Source: Thermoanaerobaculia bacterium (GTDB lineage: Bacteria > Acidobacteriota > Thermoanaerobaculia > UBA5066). From it: DNA of 59,267 bases. Below are positions 2,894 to 57,084 of this stretch, in pieces. The translations under genes and the position numbers were made by a program. Under the pieces are notes generated by a model. The model did no database searches. It was not told where the DNA came from and saw only the letters and a list, made by a program, of their open reading frames with translations. The stretch is taken from contig JBGPDK010000002.1 of assembly GCA_041482235.1 (NCBI GenBank), positions 1 to 59,267 of the forward strand, given 5' to 3'. Within the stretch, counting starts at the first letter, position 1, and each line of letters opens with the position of its first letter.

Positions 2894-3672
2894 GCGGCAG
2901 GATTCTGCTCCTGCGCTCCGGCTCGGCCGAATCCGATGACGCTCTTCCCCCGGACGTGACCGTACTTCATACGCATTCCGTCGCGCCGCGTCCCGAGGGC
3001 GTCGCCGAGGCGCTCGCGTTCGACGCGCGCGGAGCGACGCTCGTCATCTCGTCGAAGGAGACGGTCAGGGTTTTTGAGTCCAGGGAAGATTGGCTCCCTC
3101 TCTTGAGCTCCCCTTTCGCGCAGATGCTTGCGGTGGGGGAGGGCACGGGGGATTTGCTTAGAAAGGTGAATACGGGCGAGCGGCGCGACGGCACTCCTCG
3201 CGGAGCTTCAACCTACAGTGGGGCTTCCGAGACGCAGATCGTTGTTCCGACGGTCCCGGGAGCCGCGGGGGTCATTCACTTTCTAGGAAAATCTTCGGTT
3301 CCCTCTCAAGTGCGCATCCTGTGGCCGCGCGGGTCGGACGCGGCGGCTGGTCCGCTGGAGGAAGTTCGCGCCCTTGGCGTGGCGCTCTCTGCCCCTGTCG
3401 TCTACGTCAAGCGCGCGCTCGCGCCGTCCGAGCTGGACCCCTCCGTCCTCGCCGATTTCCACGCCGGGCGCTTTTCGGCCGTCGCCGTGGGCTCGACGGC
3501 CGGCTTGGATGCCCTCCTCGCGGCCGTCTCGGCGCCTCCGCACGTAAGATGGGGCGTGCTCGGGCCCGAGACCGCGAAGGCCGTGGTGGCTCGCGGACTT
3601 CCCGATCCTCTGGTTCCGGCGCACGCGCGCCTCACCGATCTCCTCGAACTCCTCCGGAAGGAAACACGATGA
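2890..3672 (+). CDS. hemD: uroporphyrinogen-III synthase
   Basis: A 260 aa two-lobed HemD-like protein placed between hemC and hemB. GTGA and ATGA overlaps on either side. The family is weakly conserved, so the call leans on context. Confidence 0.7.
   Translation: MSGRILLLRSGSAESDDALPPDVTVLHTHSVAPRPEGVAEALAFDARGATLVISSKETVRVFESREDWLPLLSSPFAQMLAVGEGTGDLLRKVNTGERRDGTPRGASTYSGASETQIVVPTVPGAAGVIHFLGKSSVPSQVRILWPRGSDAAAGPLEEVRALGVALSAPVVYVKRALAPSELDPSVLADFHAGRFSAVAVGSTAGLDALLAAVSAPPHVRWGVLGPETAKAVVARGLPDPLVPAHARLTDLLELLRKETR
3147..3177 (+). repeat. AT-rich repeat copy, forward arm, inside hemD
   Basis: GGGGATTTGCTTAGAAAGGTGAATACGGGC. Translated as DLLRKVNTG. Confidence 0.8.
3267..3298 (-). repeat. 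AT-rich repeat copy, reverse arm, inside hemD
   Basis: The reverse complement reads CCGAAGATTTTCCTAGAAAGTGAATGACCCC, the best match to the consensus. Translated as HFLGKSSV. Confidence 0.85.
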
Positions 3673-4640
3673 GCTTTCCCCTCCACCGCTACCGCCGCCT
3701 GAGGCGCTCCGAGAGCCTGCGGACGCTCGTCCGGGAGACTTCCCTCGCCCCTTCGGACTTCATCGCGCCGCTCTTCGTCGTGCCCGGGCGCGGCGTGCGC
3801 CAGCCCGTGCCGTCCATGCCGGGCATCGACCGCGTGTCGCCCGATCTCGCAGCGAAGGACGTGAAGGCGCTCGCGTCGCTCGGCGTTCTTTCCGTGATCC
3901 TGTTCGGGATCCCCGAGGACAAGGACGCGGTGGGAACGTCCTCCGCCGACAACGAGGGCCCGGTCTGCCAGGCCGTGCGGGCGATCAAGGCCGAGAATCC
4001 GGCGACCGTCGTCATGACGGACGTATGCCTCTGCGAATACACCGATCACGGCCATTGCGGCGTCATCGCGCACGACGCGGTGGACAACGATGCGACGCTT
4101 CCCCTCCTCGCGGCCGAGGCGCTCGCTCACGCGAAGGCGGGCGCGGACGTCGTCGCGCCGTCCGACATGATGGACGGGCGCGTCGGGGCGATCCGCGTGG
4201 CCCTCGACGGCGCGGGTTATCGCGACGTGGCGCTTCTCGCGTACGCCGCGAAGTACGCCTCGGGTTTCTACGGCCCGTTCCGCGAGGCCGCCGAGTCGAC
4301 GCCGTCCTTCGGCGACCGCCGCGCCTACCAGATGGATCCGGCGAACGTGCGCGAAGCCGTCAAGGAGGTCCTTTCCGACGTCGAGGAGGGCGCGGACCTC
4401 GTGATGGTCAAGCCGGCGCTTTCGTATCTCGACGTCGTCCGCGCGGCGAAGGAGGCCACGCTCGTGCCGCTCGCCTGCTACAACGTGTCGGGCGAGTACG
4501 CGATGGTGAAGGCGGCCGCCGCGAACGGCTGGATCGACGGCAAGCGCGTGACGCTCGAGATCCTGACCTCGATGAAGCGCGCGGGGGCGGACCTCATCCT
4601 CACCTATCACGCGAAGGAAGCCGCCCAATGGATCGGATGA
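3669..4640 (+). CDS. hemB: porphobilinogen synthase (delta-aminolevulinate dehydratase)
   Basis: MSFPLHRYRRLRRSESLR N-terminus, CLCEYTDHGHCG metal site, APSDMMDGRV, YAAKYASGFYGPFR and YQMDPAN blocks. Confidence 0.9.
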   Translation: MSFPLHRYRRLRRSESLRTLVRETSLAPSDFIAPLFVVPGRGVRQPVPSMPGIDRVSPDLAAKDVKALASLGVLSVILFGIPEDKDAVGTSSADNEGPVCQAVRAIKAENPATVVMTDVCLCEYTDHGHCGVIAHDAVDNDATLPLLAAEALAHAKAGADVVAPSDMMDGRVGAIRVALDGAGYRDVALLAYAAKYASGFYGPFREAAESTPSFGDRRAYQMDPANVREAVKEVLSDVEEGADLVMVKPALSYLDVVRAAKEATLVPLACYNVSGEYAMVKAAAANGWIDGKRVTLEILTSMKRAGADLILTYHAKEAAQWIG

Positions 4641-6004
4641 AGAAAGATTCTCTTGGAAAGAAAGAGGGGGCGGCGGCCCCCGCTCGAAAGCGCACCCGCA
4701 GAACCGTACAGTCCGCGGCGCTGTTCGCGCGGGCTCGGCTGCGCATGCCGGGTGGCGTGAGCAGCCCCGTGCGCTCGTTCGCGTCCGTCGGCGGGACGCC
4801 GTTTTTCGTGAAGAAGGGCCGCGGAGCGACGCTGATCGACGCCGACGGGAACCGCTACGTGGACTGGGTCATGTCCTACGGCCCGCTCCTGTTCGGGCAC
4901 GCCCATACCCCGATCTTGTCGGCCGTCCGAAGAGCCCTGCCCCGCGGCACGTCATACGGCGCTCCTACCCGGGGCGAGGTGGAGCTCGCCGAACGCGTCA
5001 CGAAGGCGTTTCCCTCGATGGAGAAGGTGCGGTTCGTGTCCTCCGGCACGGAAGCCGCGATGAGCGCGGTGCGCCTCGCGCGCGGCGCCACGGGCCGCGA
5101 TCTCATCCTGAAGTTCGCGGGCTGCTACCACGGGCACGCCGACTCGTTCCTCGTCTCCGCGGGCTCCGGCGTCGCGACGCTCGGGATTCCCGGCTCGCCC
5201 GGCGTCCCCGGCTCTCTCGCCGGCCTCACGCTCACGGCGCGGTACAACGACCTCGCCTCGGTCGAGGCGCTCTTCGCCGCGCACCCGAAGCGCATCGCGG
5301 TGATCGCGGTCGAGCCGATCGCCGCCAACATGGGGGTCGTGGCGCCCGCGCCGGGGTTTCTCGAGGGCCTCCGCGCGATCGCCCAGCGCGAGGGCGCGCT
5401 GCTGCTTTTCGACGAGGTCATCAGCGGATTCCGCGTCGCGAAGGGCGGCGCGCAGGAGTTGTACGGAGTCCGTTCCGACCTCACCTGCCTCGGAAAGATC
5501 CTCGGGGGCGGACTGCCGGTCGGGGCGTATGGCGGCCGCGCGGACCTCATGGCGAAGGTCGCGCCGGACGGCCCCGTCTATCAGGCCGGGACACTCTCGG
5601 GAAACCCGCTCGCCATGGCGGCGGGGAAAGCGATGCTCGATTCCCTCACGCCCGCCGCTTACGCGAAGCTCGAGAAGACCGCGGTTGCGCTCGAACGCGG
5701 GATGAACGGCGCCGCGAGGAAGCTGGGCGTCGGGAACCGCGTCGTGATCAACCGCGTGGGGTCGATCCTCACGCCGTTCTTCACGAAGGGTCCCGTCACG
5801 AACTTCGACGAGGCGAAGAAGTCCGACCTCGAGGCGTTCAGGCGGTGGTTCCACGCGCTCCTCGGAAACGGCGTCTTCGTCGCGCCGGCGCAGTTCGAGG
5901 CCATGTTCGTCTCGACCGCCCACACGCCCCGCGACGTCGCGGCCACCGTGAAGGCGCACGAGGCCGGCCTCAGGGAGGCCTTCGGTTTGACGGCCGGCGG
6001 GTGA
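4637..6004 (+). CDS. hemL: glutamate-1-semialdehyde 2,1-aminomutase
   Basis: PGGVSSPVRSF, YGPLLFGHAH, FDEVISGFRV and LGKILGGGLPVGAYGG (PLP lysine block). I chose the start at the ATGA overlap with the hemB stop. An ATG at 4628 is the alternative. Confidence 0.88.
   Translation: MKKDSLGKKEGAAAPARKRTRRTVQSAALFARARLRMPGGVSSPVRSFASVGGTPFFVKKGRGATLIDADGNRYVDWVMSYGPLLFGHAHTPILSAVRRALPRGTSYGAPTRGEVELAERVTKAFPSMEKVRFVSSGTEAAMSAVRLARGATGRDLILKFAGCYHGHADSFLVSAGSGVATLGIPGSPGVPGSLAGLTLTARYNDLASVEALFAAHPKRIAVIAVEPIAANMGVVAPAPGFLEGLRAIAQREGALLLFDEVISGFRVAKGGAQELYGVRSDLTCLGKILGGGLPVGAYGGRADLMAKVAPDGPVYQAGTLSGNPLAMAAGKAMLDSLTPAAYAKLEKTAVALERGMNGAARKLGVGNRVVINRVGSILTPFFTKGPVTNFDEAKKSDLEAFRRWFHALLGNGVFVAPAQFEAMFVSTAHTPRDVAATVKAHEAGLREAFGLTAGG
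4639..4670 (+). repeat. degenerate AT-rich repeat copy at the hemB/hemL junction
   Basis: GAAGAAAGATTCTCTTGGAAAGAAAGAGGGGG encodes the non-conserved hemL N-terminal extension KKDSLGKKEG. Confidence 0.5.
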
Positions 6005-7454: not shown

Positions 7455-7549
7455 AGCGGCGCGTGCGACAGGCCGCTACCCTGAGAAGCGAATGAAAACC
7501 ACCACTTTCACCGAGCGTCGGTTCGTTTAACGTTCCCTTCATTTCCGGC

Positions 7550-7556
7550 AAGGAGG
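7550..7556 (+). promoter_or_regulatory. ribosome-binding site of the mtrC-like gene
   Basis: AAGGAGG lies 6 nt upstream of the ATG at 7563. Confidence 0.6.
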
Positions 7557-7562
7557 CTGACC

Positions 7563-9677
7563 ATGTCACTGGCATCTCGTACGGTTCTCACATTCGTCGC
7601 TGGTCTCGTCGCGGTGCCCATGACACCGGTGACGCGCACCAGCCCCTCGACCGCGCCCGTCGCCCGCGAGGAGGTTCCCGTCGCGTATAACGCGACGCAG
7701 AAGGAGTTCTTCCTCGCGCCCGACCAGTTCTCGTTCCTGAGGCCCGGTCTGAACCTGAAGATCGCGTCGGTCACGAACTTCGGCCCCGGCCAGAAGCCGG
7801 TCGTCGAGTTCTTCATGACCGACGACCTCAAGCAGCCCCTCGATCGCACCGGCGGCCTCACGCCGGGCGTCGTCTCCCTCCGGTTCATCCCGGCCGTCTG
7901 GGACGCGACGAATAAGTACTACACGAACTACATCGGCTTCAACGCGGACCCCGCTAAGAACGCGAACCCGGGCCGTGACAACACGGGCGCCTACCAGGAG
8001 CTCGAGACCGGCCACTACAAGTACACGTTCGCGAACGCTCTCCCGGCCACGATGGACCCGTCCAAGCCGCATACGCTGGCCGCCATGGGCTCGCGCAACA
8101 CGACGGACTTCGTCGGGAAGCAGTACTACGCGGTCCCGCAGTACGTCGACTTCGTCCCGTCCACGAACGCGGCCGCGACGACGTGGAACGCCTCGACGCT
8201 CGCGAAGTGCAACTCTTGTCACGACCCGCTCGCGCTGCACGGCGGCAACTACCGCGACCTCAAGACGTGCGCGATGTGCCACAACCCGAACAACATGAGG
8301 GACACGATCCCCGCTTCCGGGGGCGAGCCGGCCGAGGACCGCGGCCGGTACAACGGCCAGATCTTCTGGCACCGCATCCACGCGGGGCTGGAAGAGGAGG
8401 TCGTTCCGGGCATGACGTACCCGCAGGACATCCGCAATTGCGAGACCTGCCACGACCCGGCAGCGGCCGGCGGCGCGAGCTGGTACACGAAGCCCTCGAG
8501 AGCGGCCTGCGGCTCGTGCCACAGCGACGTGAACTTCGTCACGGGCGCGAACCACTCGAACGTCGGCCCGGCGGCCGACGGCACCTGCGCCGACTGCCAC
8601 ACCCCGCAGGGCAGCGTCGAGTGGGACGCCGGCATCAAGAACGCCCACGTCGTTCCGCTCCACTCGGCCCAACTCAAGGGCTACACGGCCACGATCCTCT
8701 CGGTTTCGAACGCGGGCCCCGGCAAGAAGATCACCGTCACCTTCAAGCTCCAGAACGGCGACGGCTCCTTCGTCGACCCGGGCGTCTACAAGGTCGCCGC
8801 GAACGGTTCGATCAGCATCAAGCTCGGCGGACCGACGTCCGACTACACGAACGTCGGCATGCTCGCGGCGGGCCAGCCCTTCAGTGAAGCCGTCCAGACC
8901 GCGACGTACAACGCCACGACCGGTATCGCGACGTACACGTTCACGAACGCGATCCCGGCCGCGGCCAAGGGCACGTACACCGTCTCGATCGACACGCGCC
9001 GCTCGGTCACGCTCAATCCGGCCCCCACGAAGGGACCGACGTCGGTCAACGAAGGCGCCCCGAACCAGCCCTTCTCCTTTGCGGTCACGGGGACGACGGT
9101 CGTTCCGCGCCGCACGTCCGTCCTCCTCTCGAAGTGCAACGCCTGCCACCAGGACCTCAAGGTCCTCTTCTCGCACGGCAACCAGCGCATCACGATCGAG
9201 CACTGCGTCATCTGTCACAACCCGAACGGCAGCGACATCGGCCGCCGCGCCGCGGACGGCTCCCAGAACCCGCCCGAGTCCATCGAGTTCGCGCGCATGA
9301 TCCACCGCATCCACACGGGCGAGAATCTGACGCAGGACTACACGATCTTCGGCTTCGGCGGCACCCCCGCGAACTTCAACGACGTCAAGTACCCCGGCGA
9401 CCGCCGGAACTGCCTCGCCTGCCACGTGAACGCGGCTGCCGTCGCGCTTCCGCTCCCGATCACGAACCAGCCGGTCGTCACGGATCGCGACTTCTTCTCG
9501 CCGCGCGGCTCGGCGACCGCCGCCTGCACGGGCTGCCACGACAGCCGCGACGTCGCCGCACATGCGTTCCTCAACACGGCGTTCTTCCCGAAGGACCCGA
9601 CCGCACCCGCCGAGGCCTGCGGAACCTGCCACGGAGCCGGAGCCGAATTCGCCGTCGACAAGGTCCACGCCCGCTAA
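7563..9677 (+). CDS. decahaem c-type cytochrome, MtrC/OmcA-like
   Basis: 10 CXXCH sites (CNSCH, CAMCH, CETCH, CGSCH, CADCH, CNACH, CVICH, CLACH, CTGCH, CGTCH). They are arranged as a haem-free beta-rich region, 5 haems, a second haem-free region and 5 haems, which is the four-domain MtrC/OmcA layout. N-terminal hydrophobic signal and strong RBS. Confidence 0.8.
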   Translation: MSLASRTVLTFVAGLVAVPMTPVTRTSPSTAPVAREEVPVAYNATQKEFFLAPDQFSFLRPGLNLKIASVTNFGPGQKPVVEFFMTDDLKQPLDRTGGLTPGVVSLRFIPAVWDATNKYYTNYIGFNADPAKNANPGRDNTGAYQELETGHYKYTFANALPATMDPSKPHTLAAMGSRNTTDFVGKQYYAVPQYVDFVPSTNAAATTWNASTLAKCNSCHDPLALHGGNYRDLKTCAMCHNPNNMRDTIPASGGEPAEDRGRYNGQIFWHRIHAGLEEEVVPGMTYPQDIRNCETCHDPAAAGGASWYTKPSRAACGSCHSDVNFVTGANHSNVGPAADGTCADCHTPQGSVEWDAGIKNAHVVPLHSAQLKGYTATILSVSNAGPGKKITVTFKLQNGDGSFVDPGVYKVAANGSISIKLGGPTSDYTNVGMLAAGQPFSEAVQTATYNATTGIATYTFTNAIPAAAKGTYTVSIDTRRSVTLNPAPTKGPTSVNEGAPNQPFSFAVTGTTVVPRRTSVLLSKCNACHQDLKVLFSHGNQRITIEHCVICHNPNGSDIGRRAADGSQNPPESIEFARMIHRIHTGENLTQDYTIFGFGGTPANFNDVKYPGDRRNCLACHVNAAAVALPLPITNQPVVTDRDFFSPRGSATAACTGCHDSRDVAAHAFLNTAFFPKDPTAPAEACGTCHGAGAEFAVDKVHAR

Positions 9678-12915: not shown

Positions 12916-12924
12916 GATCGGGGG

Positions 12925-14172
12925 ATGAGGTTCGGGGGCGTTCTCGCCGCGTTTCTGCTCACGGCCGCCCCCCTTCAGGCGGCGGCGCCGCCCCCGAAGC
13001 CTCCCGCCAACGAAGATTGTCTCGCCTGCCACGAAGACCCGTCCGCGAAACGCGCCAACGGGTCTCCCGTTCTCGTCGACAGGGCGGCCTTCGCCGCCTC
13101 CGTCCACGGAGCCGCCGGCGCGTCCTGCGTCGACTGCCACCAGGACCTCGCGAAAACTGCCGATTTTCCCCACCCCGAAAAGCTCGCTTCCGTGGACTGC
13201 GCGTCCTGTCACGCGTCGGAAGTCGCGGACTACGAGAAGAGCGTTCACGCCGCCGAACGCGGGAAATCGAAGGCCAGCAAGGCTGCGTGGTGCACGGACT
13301 GCCACGGCATCCACGACATCCGGCCGTCGAAGGACCCCGCGTCGCGCACGAACCACTTCAACCTTCCGACGACCTGCCTGAAATGCCACGGGAATCTCGC
13401 GGTCGTGCCGGGCGCTGGCGGACCTCCCGTGAATCAGCCGGCACTCTTCCACGACAGCATCCACGGCCGCGCGCTCGAGAAGAGCGGTCTGAAGTTCGCC
13501 CCGAATTGCTCGAATTGCCACGGGGCGCATGCGATCCGCAATCCGAAGACTGACGCCGAGAGCTCGGTCTACCGGACGAAGATCCCCGCGACCTGCGGCA
13601 ACTGTCACGAGAAGATCCTCGCGGAGTACAGCGACTCGATCCACGGGACCCAGCTTGCGAAGGGCAACCCGAAGGTGCCCGTCTGCTCCGACTGTCACAC
13701 GGCGCACGCCATCACGGCTGTCACCGATGTGCGCCGCCTCGCGATTCTCCACCAGTGCGGGGGCTGTCACGAGTCCTCGCTCGCGACCTATCGCGATACC
13801 TATCACGGCCAGGTGAACGCGATGGGCTTCTCCCGCATCGCGACCTGCGCCGACTGCCACACGGCGCACCAGATCCATCCGGCCGGCGACCCGCGGGCCT
13901 CGGTCGCGCCCGCGAATCGCCTGGGCACGTGCCAGAAATGTCATGCCGGGGCGACAGCGAACTTCTCCCGTTACGACCCGCACGCGAACACCCACGACAA
14001 GGGACGGAGCCGCCTGCTGTGGGCTACGGCCCTCTTCATGAAGATCCTCCTCGCCGGAGTCTTCGCGTTTTTCGGAATTCACACGGTTCTCTGGTTCCCC
14101 CGGTCTCTGAAGGCGCGCGCCGCCGAGGGCCGAGGCGGCCGCAGAGCGGGTAAGGGACACGGAGCGCCATGA
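12925..14172 (+). CDS. 11-haem c-type cytochrome with a C-terminal membrane anchor
   Basis: Signal peptide, 11 CXXCH sites and one C-terminal TM helix (LLWATALFMKILLAGVFAFFGIHTVLWF). ATGA overlap with the following b-type cytochrome gene. Confidence 0.8.
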   Translation: MRFGGVLAAFLLTAAPLQAAAPPPKPPANEDCLACHEDPSAKRANGSPVLVDRAAFAASVHGAAGASCVDCHQDLAKTADFPHPEKLASVDCASCHASEVADYEKSVHAAERGKSKASKAAWCTDCHGIHDIRPSKDPASRTNHFNLPTTCLKCHGNLAVVPGAGGPPVNQPALFHDSIHGRALEKSGLKFAPNCSNCHGAHAIRNPKTDAESSVYRTKIPATCGNCHEKILAEYSDSIHGTQLAKGNPKVPVCSDCHTAHAITAVTDVRRLAILHQCGGCHESSLATYRDTYHGQVNAMGFSRIATCADCHTAHQIHPAGDPRASVAPANRLGTCQKCHAGATANFSRYDPHANTHDKGRSRLLWATALFMKILLAGVFAFFGIHTVLWFPRSLKARAAEGRGGRRAGKGHGAP

Positions 14173-15011
14173 TGACGGAGAAGGCCCCCGCGGCGGACGG
14201 CAGAGTCTGGGTCCGGCGCTTCGACCGGTTCGACCGCTCGCTGCACATTCTCCTGATGGCGAGCTTTCTGGGTCTCTCGCTGACCGGCGTGCCGCTGCTG
14301 TTTTCGGACAGGCCCTGGGCCGCGGGCCTCTCGCGTCTCTTCGGCGGGTTCCGGGCGGCGGCGACTCTGCACCGCGTCTTCGCCGCCGGGATGCTGCTGT
14401 GCTTCGGAAGCCATCTCGCGCGCCTCGCGAAGCGGCTCTTCGGAGACAAGGAGTACGAGATTCTGTGGGGGCCGTCCTCCCTCGTTCCGCAGCCACGGGA
14501 CTTCATGGAGCTCGTGCACCACGTACGCTGGTTCCTCGGCCGGGGTGCGCGACCGCGTTTCGACCGCTTCACCTACTGGGAGAAATTCGATTACTGGGCC
14601 GTGTTCTGGGGCATGGGGATCATCGGGGGCTCCGGACTGATTCTCTGGGCCCCGAAGTTCTGGGCGCGCTTCCTGCCGGGGGACCTGTTCAACATCGCGC
14701 TCCTCATCCACGGCGAGGAGGCGCTTCTCGCGGTCGTTTTCATCTTCACGATTCACTTCTTCAACGGCCACCTGAGGCCCGAAAAGTTCCCGATGGACAC
14801 GGTCATCTTCACGGGCGTTCTGCCGCTCGAGGAGCTGAAGCACGAGCGGCCCTCCGAGTACGATCGGCTCGTGGCGGAGGGCGGCGTCGAGCGCCTCGCG
14901 TCTCCGGCGCCGACCGCCGATCGCGTCTTCAAGAGCCGGATCATCGGGACGATCGCGGTTTCCCTGGGCCTCCTCCTCGTTGCGTTTACACTCATCGCTC
15001 TGTTGAGCTGA
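14169..15011 (+). CDS. membrane b-type cytochrome (FdnI/HydC-like Ni/Fe-hydrogenase b-type cytochrome family)
   Basis: Four or five TM helices with conserved His residues ([52 protein letters not shown]). Coupled to the 11-haem gene. Confidence 0.7.
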
Positions 15012-15033
15012 ACCGGCGTCGAGGAGGAGTCAC

Positions 15034-16488
15034 ATGAGCGCAGGAACCGGCGGCCGTCTGGCCGGGTGGCTGAGGCCGATCTTCTACCTGGGGCGCAACC
15101 GCGCCTCGCAGCTCGGCGTCGGACTCACGACGAGCGCCGCCGTCACGCTGATCGGCTTCTGGCTCTTCGAGGTCACGAACTCCAAACCCGTCCATCCGTA
15201 TTCGGGCATCCTGTTCATCCTCGTTCTCCCGTTCGTCTTCCTCATGGGACTCGTCCTCATCCCGATCGGGATTCTCTTCGAGCGCCGCCGGCTGCGCCGG
15301 GCGGGTCAACTTCCCACGGTTTACCCGAAAATCGACCTGGCCGATTCGAACCTCCGGCACGCGGGCATCCTCATCGCCGGCCTGACGGTGGCAAACGTCG
15401 TGATCCTGAGCCTCTCGGCCTACGTGGGCGTCGAGTACATGGACTCCGCGCGTTTCTGCGGGCTCACGTGCCACACGGTCATGGCGCCCGAGTTCACGGC
15501 ATACCTCGACTCGCCTCATTCGCGCGTCGCCTGCACGAGCTGTCACATCGGCCCGGGAGCCCCGTGGGTCGTGAAGGCGAAGGTGGACGGCGTGAGGCAG
15601 GTCATCGCGGTCACGTTCGGCACGTACGCGCGTCCGATCCCGTCTCCCGTGCACACGCTGCGTCCCGCCCGGGCGACCTGCGAACAGTGCCACTGGCCGC
15701 AGAAATTCCAGGGCGACAAGCTCAAGATCATCTCCAAGTTCGGCGACGACGAGAAGAACACGCCGACGAAAACGGTCCTCCTCCTGAAGCTGGGAGGTCG
15801 CATGGGGTCCCGGGCCACAGGGATCCACGGCCGGCACCTCGACGACAAGGAGCGGATCTCGTACCTCACCTCGAACCCGCGCCGCGAGGTCATTTCCTCG
15901 GTGACCTACCTCGGCGACGACGGAAAGCCGGTGGAGTTCGCGTCGACCGAGGTGAAGGCGACACGCGAGGAGGCACGCACGGGCGAGAGACGGACGATGG
16001 ACTGCATCGACTGCCACAACCGGCCCACGCACGCGTTCCAGCTCCCGGAACGCGCGGTGAACGAGGCCATGGCGGCCGACCGCATCAGCCCCGAGCTGCC
16101 GTTCATCCACAAGAAATCGATCGAGCTCCTGAAGATCGCCTATCCGACGCGCGAGGCCGCTTTCGAGCGATTGGAGAAGGACCTCACGGAGTTCTACAAG
16201 ACCAGGTATCCCGACGTGTACCAGACCCGCCGTGCGTCCGTCGAAACCGCGGCACGCGAGGTCCAGCGGATTTACGGGCGAAACGTGTGGCCCGAGATGA
16301 GGATCACCTGGGGAACGCACCCGAACCACATCGGCCACGAGGACTTCCTCGGGTGCTTTCGCTGCCACGACGGCAGCCACAAAGCGGCCGACGGGCGCGT
16401 CATCTCGGCCGAATGCGACGCCTGCCACGCCCTGCTCGCGCAGGACGAGACGAATCCGAAAGTGCTCGCGGATCTCGGCATCCGTTGA
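15034..16488 (+). CDS. membrane-anchored multihaem cytochrome, NapC/NirT-like
   Basis: Three N-terminal TM helices, then FCGLTCH (CX3CH) plus five CXXCH sites (CTSCH, CEQCH, CIDCH, CFRCH, CDACH). The [14 protein letters not shown] block is typical of this family. Confidence 0.75.
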
Positions 16489-21995: not shown

Positions 21996-22001
21996 GCATT
22001 T

Positions 22002-22034
22002 CGAAGAGAATTTTCTTAGAAGGGTAAGAAACCG
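22002..22034 (+). repeat. AT-rich repeat copy, forward arm, downstream of aroC
   Basis: CGAAGAGAATTTTCTTAGAAGGGTAAGAAACCG starts 7 nt after the aroC stop. Confidence 0.8.
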
Positions 22035-22038
22035 ACCC

Positions 22039-23178
22039 GTGGACTTCGACCTGGAATTCCCTTCCAAGAAATCTTCCATCCAGTTCAATCACGCCGCGAT
22101 CTGCCCGCTGCCGGCGCGCGCGGCGGCCGCGCTCGGGGCCTACGCGCGCAACCTGACGGAGCGCGGGGGCCTCGACTGGCGCGACTGGCCGAAGAAAGCC
22201 GACGAGGTCCGCGCCCTCGCGGCGCGTCTCGTCGGCGCGGACGAGCGCGTGGGGGGAGCCGGCTCGATCTCCATCGTGCCGAACACGACATGGGGCCTCG
22301 ACGTCGTGGCGCAGGGCCTCGAATTTTCGCCGGGCGACTCGGTCGTCACGGCGGCCTCGGAGTTCCCGGCGAACCTCTCGCCGTGGGTCGCGCTCGAGAA
22401 AAAGGGCGTGAAGGTGCGCCGCATCCCGACGCGGGACGGGGCGTTCGCCGCCGAAGATGTCGCGGCCGTCTGCGACGCCACGACGCGGCTCGTCTCCGTC
22501 TCGCTCGTGGCGTTTCACACGGGCTTCCGCGCGCCTGTCGAAGCGCTCGGCGCCTTCTGCCGCGGGCGCGGCATCGTCTTCGGCCTCGACGGCATCCAGG
22601 GCGTGGGCGCCCAGAGCGTGGACGTGGCGGCCTGGAACGTGGACTTCCTGTCGGCGGACGGGCACAAATGGATGCTCGGGCCGGAAGGCTGCGGCGTCCT
22701 CTTCACGACTCCGGAGCTGCGCGCGCGCCTCGCGCCGCCGCCCGGCTGGACGAACCTCAAACGCGCGCACGGGGCGGACTTCCGCGTCCCGGACAAGCCC
22801 GAATACCTCTCCGACGGCGCCCGATTCGAGCCGGGCGCTCTTCCGACGCCGGGTTTGTACGCGCTCGCGGCGTCGCTCGCGCTTCTCCTCGAGATCGGCA
22901 TTCCCGAGGTGGAGCGCCGTATCGCGCGCACGCTCGACGTTCTCGTCATGGGTCTCCCGCGCCTCGGCTTCACGCCGGTCCTGTTCGCCGGCCCGCCGCG
23001 CTCTGGCATCCTCGCGGCGCGCCCCCCCGCGGGCAGGGACGCACGGTACTTCCAGAAGCGTCTCGCGGATGAGAACGTCGTCGTGTCTGCCCGCGAAGGG
23101 TTCGTTCGCTTCTCGCCCCACGTCGGGAACGACGAGGCGGAGGCGGAGCGAATCCTCGGGCTGCTGAAAGGGCTTTAG
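22039..23178 (+). CDS. aminotransferase class V-fold PLP-dependent enzyme (cysteine desulfurase/SufS-like fold)
   Basis: FNHAA N-terminal block and SADGHKWMLGPEG (PLP lysine). The GTG start lies inside a repeat element, so the start is uncertain. Confidence 0.75.
   Translation: MDFDLEFPSKKSSIQFNHAAICPLPARAAAALGAYARNLTERGGLDWRDWPKKADEVRALAARLVGADERVGGAGSISIVPNTTWGLDVVAQGLEFSPGDSVVTAASEFPANLSPWVALEKKGVKVRRIPTRDGAFAAEDVAAVCDATTRLVSVSLVAFHTGFRAPVEALGAFCRGRGIVFGLDGIQGVGAQSVDVAAWNVDFLSADGHKWMLGPEGCGVLFTTPELRARLAPPPGWTNLKRAHGADFRVPDKPEYLSDGARFEPGALPTPGLYALAASLALLLEIGIPEVERRIARTLDVLVMGLPRLGFTPVLFAGPPRSGILAARPPAGRDARYFQKRLADENVVVSAREGFVRFSPHVGNDEAEAERILGLLKGL
22053..22081 (-). repeat. AT-rich repeat copy, reverse arm, in the first codons of the class V PLP enzyme gene
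   Basis: The reverse complement reads GGATGGAAGATTTCTTGGAAGGGAATTCC. Translated as EFPSKKSSI just before the conserved FNHAA. Confidence 0.75.
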
Positions 23179-23230
23179 ATTTCGGACCCGTCCGTTTCGT
23201 GCAGGCGTCGGTTCATCGGGCCACGGTCTG

Positions 23231-23260
23231 CAAAGTTTCTTAGAAGGTGAATAGGGCCGG
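23231..23260 (+). repeat. solitary AT-rich repeat copy between convergent genes
   Basis: CAAAGTTTCTTAGAAGGTGAATAGGGCCGG ends 9 nt before the M23 peptidase stop codon. Confidence 0.8.
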
Positions 23261-23268
23261 GTCCGCGG

Positions 23269-55332: not shown

Positions 55333-57084
55333 GTGTTCCGAACGTTCGCTCTCGTCTCCGCGGCGCTCGCCGCCCTTCTCGGCTTCCTCGTGGCCTCGGG
55401 CCGCGAAGCGGATCGCACGCGCGGGACCGGAAGGGGTCCCGACCACGCCGGAGGACGAACCGAACGGTGCGTGAGCTGCCACGTGAAGCCGGACGAGGAT
55501 CCCGGCGGCGCACATTCGAGGGCCGCTCTCGGCTGCGCGTCGTGCCATCTCGGAAATCCACTGGCGTTCGGGAAGGCGCGCGCGCACGAGGGGCTCGAGC
55601 GCGAGCCCGGCGCGCTCTCCACGGTGGCCGTGACCTGCGGCCGGGAAGGGTGTCACGCGAGAGAATCCGCGCGCGTCGCCACGTCGCCGATGACCCGCGC
55701 GAGCGGGATCGTGTCGGTCGACCGCTTCGCCTTCGGCGAGATCCCCTCTCCGGATTCCACCGAGACCGTCGCCGACATCCTCGCGGCCGCCCGCCCGACG
55801 CCTGCCGAGCTCCACCTCAGAAAGCTGTGCGCCGGCTGTCACCTCGGAGCGCGGCGCGCGAATCGCGACGATGCGATTCACGGGAACGGCTCGGGCTGCG
55901 CGGCCTGCCACGTCGCCCGGCTGGAGAAGGGCGATCCGCCGCGCGCACACCCGCCCATCGACGCCCGTGTCCCGAACGACCGCTGCTTCGCCTGCCACAG
56001 CCGGAGCGGCCGCATCAGCCTGACCTACGAAGGTCTCGCCGAAGTCGAGCCGCACCAGATTGCCGGTGGGCCGCTGCCGTGCCCGGCACCCTTGAAGCTC
56101 GCCGACGGCCGCCCCGCTTGCCGCATGGCGCCCGACGTCCATCAGGTCGCGGGGATGTCCTGCATCGACTGCCACCTGCACACGGAGCTCATGGGCGACG
56201 GGACGGCGCGAACGCACGAGGAGGAGCAGGTCGAGATCACGTGCGAGGCCTGCCACGGGCCCGTCCGCGAGGGGGGCGAGGTCGCGTGGAGCGAGGTCAA
56301 AGACGAGATCAGCTTAGAAATTCAGAAGAGAGAAAGACGAAGAGAAGAGGAAGATTTTCTTAGAAAGGGGAGTGAGGGCCGCGCGCCCGATGGAGCGGCC
56401 CGCCTCGGGCGGGCTGAGCCCCCCGACTGGACCCTTTCTAAGAAATCTTCTTCTCATGCTGCCCCGCCCGATGCACGCGTGCGCCTCGGTCGACGCGGCA
56501 CTCCCCTCCTAAACCTTCTAAGAAGATCTTCTTCTTCTCTTTCTTCGTCTTCTTCCTCATCCGACTGGATTCTCGTGCGCAAGCTCGATGGCGTCGTCTT
56601 GCAGGTGAAGCAGACGCCGCGCGATGCGAACCATGCGCGGAAGGGGCACGAGCGCCTGTCGTGCAGCGCCTGCCACACGGCGTGGGCGCCGAGGTGCGAC
56701 ACGTGCCACACGAGCTTCGACGCGGCGCGCACGCAGTGGGACTTCGCGGCGGGGAAGCCGACGGCCGGCGCGTGGACGGAGCGCTCGGAGGGCTTTTCGT
56801 GGGGACCGCCGCTCCTGGGCGTCCGCGCGGACGGAAGGATCGTTCCCGCGGCCCCGGGGATGATCCTCGACATAGAAAGGACGGCGGCGGGCGGCGGGAA
56901 GACATCGCGCCGGCTGCTCGCGCCGATGGAGCCGCATGCGACGGGGAAGAAGGCCCGCACCTGCGAGAGCTGCCACCGGTCCCCGGCCGCGCCGGAATTC
57001 GAGGCGGGCACGCGGACCGGATTCCGCGGCCTCGACGCAGCCGAGCGGAGGCGCGTGGCGGCCGCCCGGGTCGAGCCCCGCTAG
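55333..57084 (+). CDS. multihaem c-type cytochrome (10 CXXCH plus one CX4CH) carrying repeat-derived inserts
   Basis: N-terminal TM/signal (ALVSAALAALLGFLVA) and 10 CXXCH sites plus CGREGCH. An ~85 aa low-complexity segment (KRERRREEE ... SSSSLSSSSSSS) between haems 7 and 8 coincides with AT-rich repeats. Confidence 0.75.
   Translation: MFRTFALVSAALAALLGFLVASGREADRTRGTGRGPDHAGGRTERCVSCHVKPDEDPGGAHSRAALGCASCHLGNPLAFGKARAHEGLEREPGALSTVAVTCGREGCHARESARVATSPMTRASGIVSVDRFAFGEIPSPDSTETVADILAAARPTPAELHLRKLCAGCHLGARRANRDDAIHGNGSGCAACHVARLEKGDPPRAHPPIDARVPNDRCFACHSRSGRISLTYEGLAEVEPHQIAGGPLPCPAPLKLADGRPACRMAPDVHQVAGMSCIDCHLHTELMGDGTARTHEEEQVEITCEACHGPVREGGEVAWSEVKDEISLEIQKRERRREEEDFLRKGSEGRAPDGAARLGRAEPPDWTLSKKSSSHAAPPDARVRLGRRGTPLLNLLRRSSSSLSSSSSSSDWILVRKLDGVVLQVKQTPRDANHARKGHERLSCSACHTAWAPRCDTCHTSFDAARTQWDFAAGKPTAGAWTERSEGFSWGPPLLGVRADGRIVPAAPGMILDIERTAAGGGKTSRRLLAPMEPHATGKKARTCESCHRSPAAPEFEAGTRTGFRGLDAAERRRVAAARVEPR
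56323..56380 (+). repeat. extended forward arm (purine tract plus AT-rich repeat) inside the 10-haem cytochrome gene
   Basis: CAGAAGAGAGAAAGACGAAGAGAAGAGGAAGATTTTCTTAGAAAGGGGAGTGAGGGCC. It pairs imperfectly over about 55 nt with 56491-56548. Confidence 0.85.
56429..56459 (-). repeat. AT-rich repeat copy, reverse arm (inner) inside the cytochrome gene
   Basis: The reverse complement reads GCATGAGAAGAAGATTTCTTAGAAAGGGTCC. Translated as TLSKKSSSH. Confidence 0.8.
56491..56548 (-). repeat. extended reverse arm (AT-rich repeat plus pyrimidine tract) inside the cytochrome gene
   Basis: The reverse complement reads GAGGAAGAAGACGAAGAAAGAGAAGAAGAAGATCTTCTTAGAAGGTTTAGGAGGGGAG. Translated as LLNLLRRSSSSLSSSSSSS. 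Confidence 0.85.

Follow-up and report, generated by a model that had tools for sequence, protein, structure and literature searches.

Instability at quasi-palindromes and microsatellites arises through template switching and slippage. Dispersed palindromic repeats are usually attributed to transposition into non-essential DNA. Among the systems closest to the one considered here, REPINs are doublets of REP sequences that form hairpins and whose invariant 16-mers are separated by 71 bp in P. fluorescens GI (Bertels and Rainey 2011, PMC3116915), while Rickettsia palindromic elements and other intragenic MITEs have been reviewed (PMC10969869) and MITEs have also been described in Coxiella (PMC5896051). 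In contrast to the usual attribution, the repeat family described in this work has its pair of arms on the codons of essential genes. Our material was a 59,267-nt stretch of DNA from a Thermoanaerobaculia bacterium (GenBank assembly GCA_041482235.1, contig JBGPDK010000002.1, positions 1 to 59,267; hereafter the window), in which one copy of the element lies inside a multihaem cytochrome gene. We consider it reasonably probable that the repeat-bearing segment of this gene is the ancestral surface loop of the cytochrome, onto which a copy of a lineage-specific inverted-repeat element, found genome-wide, was later written in place.

The gene (55333–57084, + strand; GTG start at 55333, stop at 57084) is identified by its open reading frame and by the Pfam families Cytochrom_c3_2, C7 and CIII as encoding a c-type cytochrome, which is membrane-anchored and carries 10 CXXCH sites; the protein homologue search returned 1361 homologues. 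It belongs to a Rieske / cytochrome b / cytochrome c / molybdopterin-oxidoreductase cluster, the gene order of which is the same in L054 and L055. The repeat-bearing segment is bounded by CEACH, the seventh canonical CXXCH site, and CSACH, the eighth. As originally described, the reading frame stays open across the whole segment, which is translated in frame and yields one charged, helix-like stretch and one of poly-Ser. Modelled with AlphaFold2 on alignment A1, the cytochrome has a mean pLDDT of 43, and the model does not place the loop. The gene is probably functional, with the conserved loop motif intact.

The left edge of the segment encodes DEISLEIQ (56302–56325, + strand). This interval includes AGCTTAGAAATTC (56311–56323), which had been taken for a partial copy of the element, and the family matrix, for which no copy from a cytochrome was used, gives 10.8 bits at 56299; the codon comparison with L012, L048, L054 and L055 and the stage series described below make it instead a descendant of the ancestral D-x-I-T/S-R-D-L-L-R (ITRDLLR) codons. 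It is followed by a purine (GAR)n microsatellite-like tract encoding KRERRREEE (56326–56352, + strand; TRF periods 6 and 11 at 56329–56354), which varies from 7 to 17 residues across the 33 orthologues measured, and by the left family arm GAAGATTTTCTTAGAAAGGGGAGTGAGGGCC (56350–56380, + strand, 40.8 bits), translated as EDFLRKGSEG. The GC-rich unit 1, RAPDGAARLGRAEPPDW (56381–56428, + strand), is an old tandem duplicate of the ancestral core, as seen from the direct repeat (56384–56411 versus 56465–92, spacing 81 nt, 75% identity) and the ungapped alignment of both units, and orthologue comparison finds it in some lineages only. The inner right-arm copy (56429–56459, − strand, 27.2 bits) was duplicated along with unit 1 and is read in another frame as TLSKKSSSH. 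The ancestral loop core APPDARVRLGRRGTPL (56461–56508, + strand) is native cytochrome sequence according to alignment A1 and 39 orthologue segments, is conserved out to Myxococcota and still encodes the ancestral RLGRRGTPL motif between the arms. The outer right arm GGCACTCCCCTCCTAAACCTTCTAAGAAGATCT (56497–56529, − strand, 38.5 bits), translated as GTPLLNLLRRS, lies in the codon series on ancestral GTPLWNLRP codons, and beyond it a pyrimidine (TCY)n tract (56524–56562, + strand; TRF period 3, 9.7 copies, 56527–56555) encodes the poly-Ser SSSSLSSSSSSS, which is hypervariable in orthologues (2–15 residues).

The inverted repeat itself is real. Folded as RNA, 56300–56560 reaches −118.1 kcal/mol, whereas 200 dinucleotide shuffles average −87.3 ± 5.2 (z = −5.98), the DNA fold has z = −6.46, and in both cases 0 of 200 shuffles fold equally well. 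The outer arms, described originally as pairing imperfectly over about 55 nt, do form an outer stem of about that length in both folds, broken by internal loops of 8 nt and 4 nt; 56340–56365 and 56516–56541 are 92% complementary, and the inner arms 56356–56369 and 56432–56445 are 100% complementary. The accompanying description of a low-GC interval of about 240 nt is correct for the two arms, where 60-nt windows fall below 48% GC (56282–56381 and 56492–56585), but not for the centre between them, which is 63–69% GC, so that the interval is not uniform.

The orthologues decide how this structure is to be read. In Holophagales and Myxococcota the equivalent ancestral loop or linker comprises about 35 residues, ITRDLLR...RLGRRGTPLWNLRP, and the repeat is absent: the segments are 70–81% GC, have no TTCTWAGAA and fold no better than shuffles (z from +2.0 to −0.7). 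The inter-haem segment has 125 residues here versus 73–79 in most of these orthologues, and the approximately 49 extra residues consist of about 13 on the left, 27 from the old tandem duplication and about 9 of poly-Ser. The original prediction that about 80 foreign residues had been inserted, nested or in tandem, is therefore abandoned, since what lies between the arms is the cytochrome's own ancestral sequence, and a linker of this kind in unrelated orthologues lacking any DNA-level inverted repeat was the outcome named beforehand as refuting the insertion reading.

Intermediate states are found in a codon-level stage series that runs from L012/L048 through L054 and L055 to the derived state. 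At the same positions the score of a matrix trained on non-cytochrome copies only rises from about −30..−11 bits to −4, then to +7 to +12 and finally to +28 to +46. In the codon series the right arm clearly sits on ancestral codons. On the left side, the step from stage 2 to the derived state includes an abrupt gain of about 14 codons, which looks like the insertion of a single arm. Our first reading, in which DFLRK was the orthologue of ancestral RDLLR, was revised after the stage series; in the alternative alignment ISLEI would be the descendant of RDLLR and DFLRKG... the gain of about 14 codons, and both alignments of the left arm are possible from the sequences. In the neighbour-joining tree the ancestral-type P0010 falls within the derived clade and the derived P0013 lies beside the stage-2 forms, so the tree does not give a clean order of events, and there may have been recombination or repeated gain.

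The cytochrome copy is one member of a dispersed family with the consensus GA-TTTCTTAGAAGG-GTGA ... TCAC-CTTCTAAGAAAATC, in which two conserved arms of about 15–25 nt, with the core TTTCTTAGAAGG, surround a locus-specific GC-rich core. The motif TTCTWAGAA occurs 5 times in the window versus 0.00 expected, and the window has 12 arms at 6 loci versus 1 match in 309 kb of non-clade loci. The suggestion that the same repeat family is present in the hem genes held up, with arms in hemC (2669 and 2778), in hemD (3143 and 3265) and after hemB (4638). The hemC copy is a weak convergent arm pair inside the C-terminal domain (2669–2814, + strand; 14.2 bits on + and 15.8 bits on −), spanned by Pfam Porphobil_deamC with about 6 extra residues. 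The hemD element (3143–3301, + strand) has the arms GATTTGCTTAGAAAGGTGAATA and TCATTCACTTTCTAGGAAAATC on native HemD helices, separated by an extra loop of 19 codons; the HemD alignment, used in a PDB profile search, had no match at E up to 0.01. A degenerate single arm lies directly 3' of the hemB stop codon (4638–4674, + strand, 18.1 bits), a short element occupies the space from the chorismate synthase stop to the class-V aminotransferase start (22001–22082, + strand; 36.3 bits on +, 22.4 bits on −), and another single intergenic arm has no detectable partner (23225–23261, + strand, 33.3 bits). Some single arms of the family are located 5–8 nt upstream of start codons; the left arm might conceivably imitate an extended Shine-Dalgarno sequence and the right arm the 3' tail of 16S rRNA, and none of the fetched loci has a 16S 3' end.

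In 1.33 Mb of sequence the family has 262 matches, and in shuffles 0. Eighty metagenome contigs contain the element, about 75 of them high-GC, and the 72 analysable ones form 35 groups by core similarity, with the cytochrome on only 2 contigs, which gives at least 35 distinct metagenome loci. The family is absent from related clades and is specific to one Thermoanaerobaculia lineage. Neighbouring arm pairs are convergent in 97 of 106 cases and divergent in none, with a spacing peak at 76 nt centre to centre, and next to the apparently solo arms decayed partners were found on the correct side (p = 1e-5). Cores from different loci are unrelated, forming 35 groups at 70% identity or less, and the only recurring encoded peptides are the arm-derived xFLRK/xLLRK. 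In-frame copies occur in genes for the cytochrome, hisA, hemD, hemC, a short-chain dehydrogenase, a methyltransferase, DUF2400, a chromate transporter and SCO1. Rfam searches of the whole window at gathering thresholds and of 14 element-bearing loci at E up to 1 returned nothing relevant, and a search of the literature with the arm sequences as strings found unrelated eukaryotic primers and sites only.

The copies in unrelated genes repeat what is seen in the cytochrome. A hisA product with a complete element spans 223 residues versus 218 Pfam positions (5 extra), the short-chain dehydrogenase copy has 8 extra residues only, and in L137 a complete 84-nt element lies in hemD on the native DLLRRVNTGAVVVPEIPGAAGVIHFLRR, with approximately zero insertion relative to outgroups. 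In hisA, hemD and the cytochrome the arms overlie native coding sequence and lengthen it little or not at all, on sites that already encoded compatible residues (xDLLRxG ... xLLRx), and the changes at these loci were substitutions and short indels, not a cut-and-paste insertion. The DUF2400 copy has 33 extra residues relative to the Pfam model, which indicates that true insertions may also occur.

These observations bear directly on the most conventional explanation, a classical non-autonomous transposon resembling a MITE or a Rickettsia palindromic element, i.e., a palindrome of about 100–250 nt inserted once or twice in nested fashion and read in frame. The family is dispersed and clade-restricted, it has terminal inverted repeats and lies both between and inside genes; the added residues in DUF2400, a complete intergenic copy in L021 sharing an identical 26-nt arm with the cytochrome copy of the same L021, and the precedent of in-frame palindromic elements in Rickettsia (PMC10969869) would all suit it. 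However, the inter-arm sequence in the cytochrome is ancestral, and the minimal derived forms are only 7–10 residues longer than the ancestral ones while the element spans about 28 codons; hisA and hemD hold full elements at no added length and the cores are unrelated between loci; no flanking direct repeats were visible by eye at about 35 loci; and sister lineages carry proto-sites of intermediate score. We regard the transposon explanation as distinctly unlikely, and for the cytochrome locus it is largely refuted.

The appearance of the motif in coding sequence without indels, at residues that already fit, is instead expected of a molecular drive like that of uptake sequences, in which the arm core would be a signal for DNA uptake or recombination that accrues in place by mutation together with biased uptake and homologous replacement. 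Known uptake sequences behave likewise (PMC2817400), and the graded intermediate matches, the clade-specific and strong over-representation and the synonymous-site conservation point in the same direction. The strict convergent pairing at about 76 nt, with partners decaying together, is nevertheless foreign to uptake sequences, the density of about 1 locus per 10 kb is low compared with about 1 per kb for USS and DUS, the uptake signals of Pasteurellaceae and Neisseriaceae, and the adjoining microsatellite tracts are not explained. This drive seems unlikely to us. Synonymous-site conservation was also computed for hisA but set aside as evidence, because the loci had been chosen by the motif and the reasoning would be circular.

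The arm cores are under constraint at the nucleotide level. In 10 of 10 cytochrome orthologues, picked by protein similarity, CTT AGA AAG of the left arm and AAC CTT CTA AGA ... TCT of the right arm are identical, A/T third positions included; outside the element AT3 is 9%, with a pairwise identity of 0.66 at third positions, and it is the invariance of A/T third positions against this low AT3 that argues for such constraint. It could stem from an unrecognised function. The elements have no strand bias (21 of 35, p = 0.26) and genes carry both orientations, and polarity with respect to the RNA strand was ruled out, there being no fold asymmetry either. Hairpin-templated correction between the arms was likewise rejected: arm similarity within one element equals that between elements (p = 0.5), which argues against one arm correcting the other. 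The left and right tracts vary in length independently of each other (r = 0.03, n = 33 orthologues), and among repeat-bearing orthologues the fold z ranges from −0.8 to −7.3, so that the strength of the hairpin is not conserved. No evidence speaks for a role of the repeat in the cytochrome or for selection on the hairpin itself.

The same data make it quite improbable that the repeat is a functional cis-element, whether an mRNA stem recognised by RNase III or causing pausing or attenuation, or a translational brake made of rare codons (AGA, CTA, TTA) that would act between the two halves of the cytochrome. Such a role would account for a very stable stem in this genome, for the conservation of the arm cores and for arms built of codons seldom used in a genome of 70% GC. 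Yet unrelated genes and intergenic DNA carry the same arms, which also occur on the antisense strand, hairpin stability is not kept (L009, z = −0.8; L027, z = −1.2) and the tract lengths do not co-vary, and some lineages have the reading frame shifted or lack the whole loop.

Conserved inverted sites around locus-specific cores, as in the regulons of global invertases, also bring to mind an intragenic invertible or excisable segment, the arms being sites of a site-specific recombinase that switches many genes; each arm has the palindromic centre TTCTWAGAA, and L044/P0027 is without the whole region. Against this, the core has its native orientation in all of about 50 cytochrome proteins, 39 orthologue segments and 16 hisA contigs (a weak test, since assemblies represent the majority state), the L044 deletion ends well outside the arms, the sites lie about 65 bp apart, a very short distance for synapsis, and inversion of the core would destroy the essential enzymes encoded by hisA and hemD. 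We consider this explanation very improbable.

What the repeat does bring to the cytochrome gene is instability. Frameshifts are found in the related genomes L021, L028, L032, L045 and L008, the whole loop is deleted in L044/P0027, and the cytochrome differs from a 99%-identical relative by one codon in the Ser tract. The tracts and the hairpin constitute a hot spot for indels, frameshifts and deletions, in agreement with the original prediction. Tract-internal frameshifts in several long-read assemblies might also be taken as a sign of an assembly artefact or chimera at a low-complexity region, but the same architecture recurs in dozens of independent assemblies from differing projects and sequencing technologies, which leaves an artefact with a negligible probability.

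Taken together, the evidence suggests the following history for the cytochrome locus. Both edges of the loop acquired the element arms on pre-existing coding sequence in one Thermoanaerobaculia lineage; purine (GAR)n tracts then extended outward from the left arm and pyrimidine (TCY)n tracts outward from the right arm, and an old tandem duplication of 81–84 nt comprising the core plus the right arm produced the inner reverse copy. The arm cores may be kept constant by a sequence-specific process acting on nucleic acid, most likely at the level of DNA; no strand or transcription polarity was seen. The likeliest agent would be a trans-acting protein recognising the paired arms, as RAYT does for REPINs, although a regular-expression search for a RAYT-like ORF (HUH plus Y..NP motifs), which is a weak test, found none in the fetched loci, and there was none among the window genes scanned against Pfam. 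New copies would appear where the sequence is already arm-like, and a directional conversion or drive would bring them to the consensus. The element is presumably of no use to the cytochrome, its main local effect being instability driven by the hairpin and the microsatellites, and would be tolerated because the conserved loop motif is flanked and not replaced.

As for the family as a whole, we tentatively propose that it consists of previously undescribed REPIN-like inverted doublets that spread without movement of DNA, a sequence-specific, directional process stamping two convergent arms of about 15–25 nt some 76 nt apart onto sequence already present, the conserved coding parts of housekeeping genes included, and then holding them constant. 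The stamping could be an enzyme-guided conversion or an uptake/recombination drive that recognises the paired site, and hisA, hemD and the cytochrome would have been recoded around the arms. In our own assessment, any mechanism by which native sequence would twice receive a motif of 12 nt or more, at a preferred distance, is hypothetical, and this counts against what is otherwise the best explanation.

If the pattern is confirmed in complete genomes, repeat families may arise or spread by in-place conversion, which bears on the origin and persistence of elements of the REP/REPIN type. The family offers a testable system with a defined motif, a defined spacing, many loci and, at the cytochrome locus, evolutionary intermediates. 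Such elements also reshape proteins by charged and poly-Ser loops, duplications and loop loss, and their frameshift hot spots may be misread as pseudogenes or errors by annotation pipelines and MAG quality checks.

In comparison with the systems described so far, the family is closest in kind to the REPINs, though several of their defining features fail. A short conserved unit is present in many copies per genome, far above chance; the units form inverted doublets with a preferred spacing (about 76 nt here) and a predicted hairpin; the spacer is less conserved than the ends, and singlets resemble decaying doublets; and the family is clade-specific and vertically persistent. REPINs, however, are extragenic, whereas many copies here lie inside genes and are translated. 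REPINs move with their spacer as a unit, while the spacer of our coding copies is host gene sequence. The arm consensus GAAGATTTTCTTAGAAGGGTGAGTGA is without the GTAG or CGTC tag, microsatellite tracts adjoin the arms, and in the fetched loci the family is without a RAYT link.

The Rickettsia palindromic elements resemble our family in being palindromic repeats found in unrelated housekeeping genes, in frame and at tolerated positions, and terminal inverted repeats are shared with MITEs. Rickettsia palindromic elements nevertheless insert a conserved, element-encoded peptide, whereas here the arms replace native codons and the middle is native; unlike in MITEs, hisA, hemD and the minimal cytochrome forms have gained little or no length, with DUF2400 as a possible exception. 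With uptake sequences the family shares a lineage-specific motif that accrues in genes at compatible, weakly constrained residues and is then kept (Findlay and Redfield 2009, PMC2817400), but USS and DUS are single 9–12-mers in either orientation, at about 1 per kb, whereas our unit consists of two convergent arms that keep a fixed spacing and are flanked by tracts, with about 1 locus per 10 kb. The instability of quasi-palindromes and microsatellites leaves the recurrence of the same arm sequence at unrelated loci unexplained, while it does account for the variable (GAR)n/(TCY)n tracts, the 81-nt duplication, the frameshifts and the deletions among close relatives.

The cytochrome gene (55333, GTG, to 57084, stop; plus strand) belongs, by its homologues and Pfam matches, to a large multihaem family of the Acidobacteriota (Thermoanaerobaculia, Holophagales) and lies in a conserved cluster that runs sigma-54 activator, Rieske protein, cytochrome b, the cytochrome, molybdopterin oxidoreductase. 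Between its seventh (CEACH) and eighth (CSACH) haem sites two low-GC stretches (56282-56381 and 56492-56585; GC minimum 35-40%) enclose a centre of 63-69% GC. The original description of the inverted repeats holds, the outer arms (56340-65 / 56516-41) being 92% and the inner arms (56356-69 / 56432-45) 100% complementary. The reading frame indeed stays open throughout, and the minimum-free-energy fold of 56300-56560 beats dinucleotide shuffles both as RNA (z = -5.98) and as DNA (z = -6.46), none of the shuffles folding as well in either case.

The reading of this segment as a foreign insert of about 80 residues fails in part, because the window's APPDARVRLGRRGTPLLNLLRR is the same loop that its orthologues possess. 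Alignment of 33 homologues, together with the inter-haem segments of 39 orthologous loci from species-representative genomes, showed that in Holophagales, other Thermoanaerobaculia and Myxococcota/deltaproteobacteria this segment is mostly 73-79 residues long and contains a conserved loop, D-x-I-T/S-R-D-L-L-R-x-R-G-E-x-R-P-P-x-E-R-V-R-L-G-R-R-G-T-P-L-W-N-L-R-P. The loop DNA of these orthologues is 70-81% GC and contains no TTCTWAGAA, and their segments fold no better than shuffles (z +2.0 to -0.7), so that an equivalent loop lacking the inverted repeat exists in unrelated lineages. The window's segment, at 125 residues, is longer by about 49: some 13 make up the purine tract and arm on the left, 27 come from a tandem duplication and about 9 are poly-Ser.

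Four stages in the building of the locus can be read from the codon-level comparison and an ordered list of 50 cytochrome segments. The loop is GC-rich in the ancestral stage (loci L012 and L048); in the second its length is unchanged and the RDLLR codons have become GAT CTT CTG AGA or ATT CTC AGA, with TTCTSAGAA (L054/P0010 and L055/P0023); in the third NLLRISSS and a long Ser tract are present with no gain on the left side (proteins P0018, P0022 and P0023); and in the fourth, derived stage the left side carries E(E/G)DFLRKGxR.... A position matrix trained only on family copies outside the cytochrome (95th percentile of the null, -4.5 bits), taken at the same positions in all stages, gave about -30 to -11 bits for the ancestral stage, -4 bits for L048, +7 to +12 bits for L054 and L055 and +28 to +46 bits for the derived forms. 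The right arm, GGC ACT CCC CTC CTA AAC CTT CTA AGA AGA TCT, sits on the ancestral GTPLWNLRP codons, and the inner reverse copy stems from an old tandem duplication of the core plus right arm (period 81-84 nt), confined to some lineages, the two units of which are 57% identical ungapped and 75% over their best 28 nt. In a neighbour-joining tree built without the repeat segment, P0010, with its ancestral-type loop, is nested in the derived clade and the derived P0013 stands beside second-stage forms, which hints at recombination of the segment between lineages or at its repeated gain.

The tracts in the cytochrome are microsatellite-like according to TRF, and a relative at 99% identity differs by one Ser codon. 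Damage to the segment is seen in several related genomes. Compensated double frameshifts occur inside it in L008 and L021 and uncompensated ones, some perhaps long-read errors, in L028, L032 and L045; the entire loop is lost in L044/P0027, a cluster of 32 sequences. Since the frame and the RLGRRGTPL motif of the window's cytochrome are intact, it probably still functions. The position of the loop could not be read from the structure prediction, which was poor (pLDDT 43). At least three further multihaem cytochromes are encoded in the window (MtrC/MtrF-like, c7/c3-like and NapC/NirT-like, at 7485-9674, 12916-14169 and 15007-16485), which suggests that the organism specialises in extracellular or respiratory electron transfer.

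The arms are members of a family dispersed through the genome. At a threshold of at least 8 bits the family matrix found 12 arms at six loci of the window, compared with one match in 309 kb of non-clade loci: in hemC (2669 + / 2778 -), in hemD (3143 + / 3265 -), after the hemB stop (4638 +), as a pair at 22001 + / 22046 -, singly at 23225 + and four times in the cytochrome. The original remark that the family is also present in the hem genes was right; the hem operon (hemC, hemD, hemB) carries three separate copies or half-copies (2669-2814, 3143-3301 and 4638-4674), the hemC pair being weak (14-16 bits) and lying within the C-terminal domain. In the orthologue loci TTCTWAGAA is restricted to genomes with a derived-state cytochrome, where it is found outside the cytochrome as well; L021:800-990, for instance, is an intergenic copy that is complete and has both tracts. 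When metagenome contigs were scanned for the paired-arm pattern, 81 loci matched, about 75 on contigs of 66-73% GC; they represent at least 35 unrelated loci, and the cytochrome is present on two contigs only. The consensus reads [(GARGAR)n or (GGATTC)n] GA TTTCTTAGAAGG GTGAGTGA on the left, a variable, GC-rich core of about 45 nt, and CCATTCAC CTTCTAAGAAAATC [(TCTTCY)n or (AATCCG)n] on the right. Arm pairs are convergent, never divergent, with a centre-to-centre spacing of 64-95 nt (peak 76), and for about half of the arms that seem single a degenerate partner lies on the side where it is expected (Mann-Whitney p = 1e-5). No Rfam family matched the element.

Beside some copies hexamer arrays, (GGATTC)n / (GAATCC)n, replace (GAAGAG)n (left flanks of L072, L073, L080, L083, L118, L129 and L135; right flanks of L107, L109 and L111), and both kinds of tract have the look of the arm's first six bases expanded in tandem. 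Single left arms also lie in the gap that separates a stop codon from the start codon next downstream, as in AGAAAGGGG-N6-GTG (L004:17190-17240, L006:17210-17260, L009:17105-17155, L032:1650-1700), where, judged from sequence, they would provide a strong Shine-Dalgarno sequence; the arm is similar to the complement of the universal 16S 3' tail (AGAAAGGAGGTGA). Another conserved palindrome (CCGAATGGCCGATGTCAAGG ... CCTTGACATCGGTCATTCGGG), perhaps a regulatory hairpin or promoter region with no relation to the family, adjoins a single arm in two genomes (L002:50-140, L032:1740-1840).

In every coding case examined the arms fall on a pre-existing xLLRxG-like helix. A hisA-type gene with a full element is present on sixteen contigs; the element's arms encode VEDFLERG and (F)IHLLRK and its core the native ARAVVGSLPFLDRP, and the protein covers 223 residues where the Pfam His_biosynth model has 218 positions. 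HemD outgroups read ...TARALREAGAPDVTVPxxPGAAGIVELLA... and clade members ...TGDLLRKVNTG...VVPxxPGAAGVIHFLRKSS...; the hemD of L137 has a complete 84-nt element (GATTTGCTTAGAAGGGTGAAT...ATTCACTTTCTAAGAAGA) on this native stretch and no insertion, and the window's hemD loop has 19 codons more. Tandem DLLRKVNTG units occur in HemD of other relatives, the left-arm-encoded GDLLRKVNTG being duplicated or triplicated in P0123, P0126, P0131 and P0138 of the HemD alignment; the aligned sequences therefore show arm-associated duplication recurring at a second locus. The HemD homologue P0198 (319 aa) was called with an N-terminal extension, ...FQEIFFFSFSFSFLLFPRSSS, that looks like the translated pyrimidine tract of another element just upstream of hemD. 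In the SCO1/SenC-like gene of L077 the element occupies residues 47-76 and its core encodes the N-terminal transmembrane helix (GLLAGLAIVAAGGAAALLF), clearly one more case of functional host sequence. The short-chain dehydrogenase copy is longer by just 8 residues. The DUF2400 copy has 33 more, so that some of the copies may be true insertions.

The cytochrome arms are constrained at the nucleotide level and the hairpin is not. Among ten orthologues picked by protein similarity, and hence free of motif bias, GAA GAT TTT CTT AGA AAG and AAC CTT CTA AGA AAA TCT are nearly all identical, with CTT AGA AAG, AAC CTT CTA AGA and TCT the same in all ten, A/T third positions included; outside the element A or T fills only 9% of third positions, and pairwise identity at third positions is 0.66. 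Several tests speak against selection acting on the stem. Arms are no more similar within than between elements (permutation p = 0.5), and the length of the purine tract on the left shows no correlation with that of the Ser tract on the right (r = 0.03, n = 33). Among derived orthologues the fold z-score varies between -0.8 and -7.3. The two strands do not differ in how well they fold (21/35, p = 0.26), and both orientations of the element are found within genes. The exceptionally long stem in the window is therefore largely a by-product, both tracts happening to be long in this lineage. The best-supported mechanism, as we infer it, is that a sequence-specific process acting on DNA would keep the arms and that new copies would arise where the sequence is already arm-like, after which slippage and duplication demonstrably enlarge the locus.

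We file the family as a variant form within the dispersed palindromic repeats, because it matches three known systems in part. No RAYT was found for it, this being a weak test. The closest architecture is that of REPINs (PMC3116915), which likewise consist of conserved inverted doublets at a preferred spacing, with a spacer that is less conserved, a hairpin, and singlets that decay; unlike REPINs, however, our family is not confined to extragenic DNA, its spacers are either native or peculiar to the locus, and its arms carry no GTAG or CGTC tag. Translation in frame is a trait it shares with the Rickettsia palindromic elements (PMC10969869), but it does not insert a peptide that the element encodes. 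It resembles DNA uptake sequences (PMC2817400) in forming in place where the residues are compatible, and is set apart from them by its strict pairing, spacing and density.
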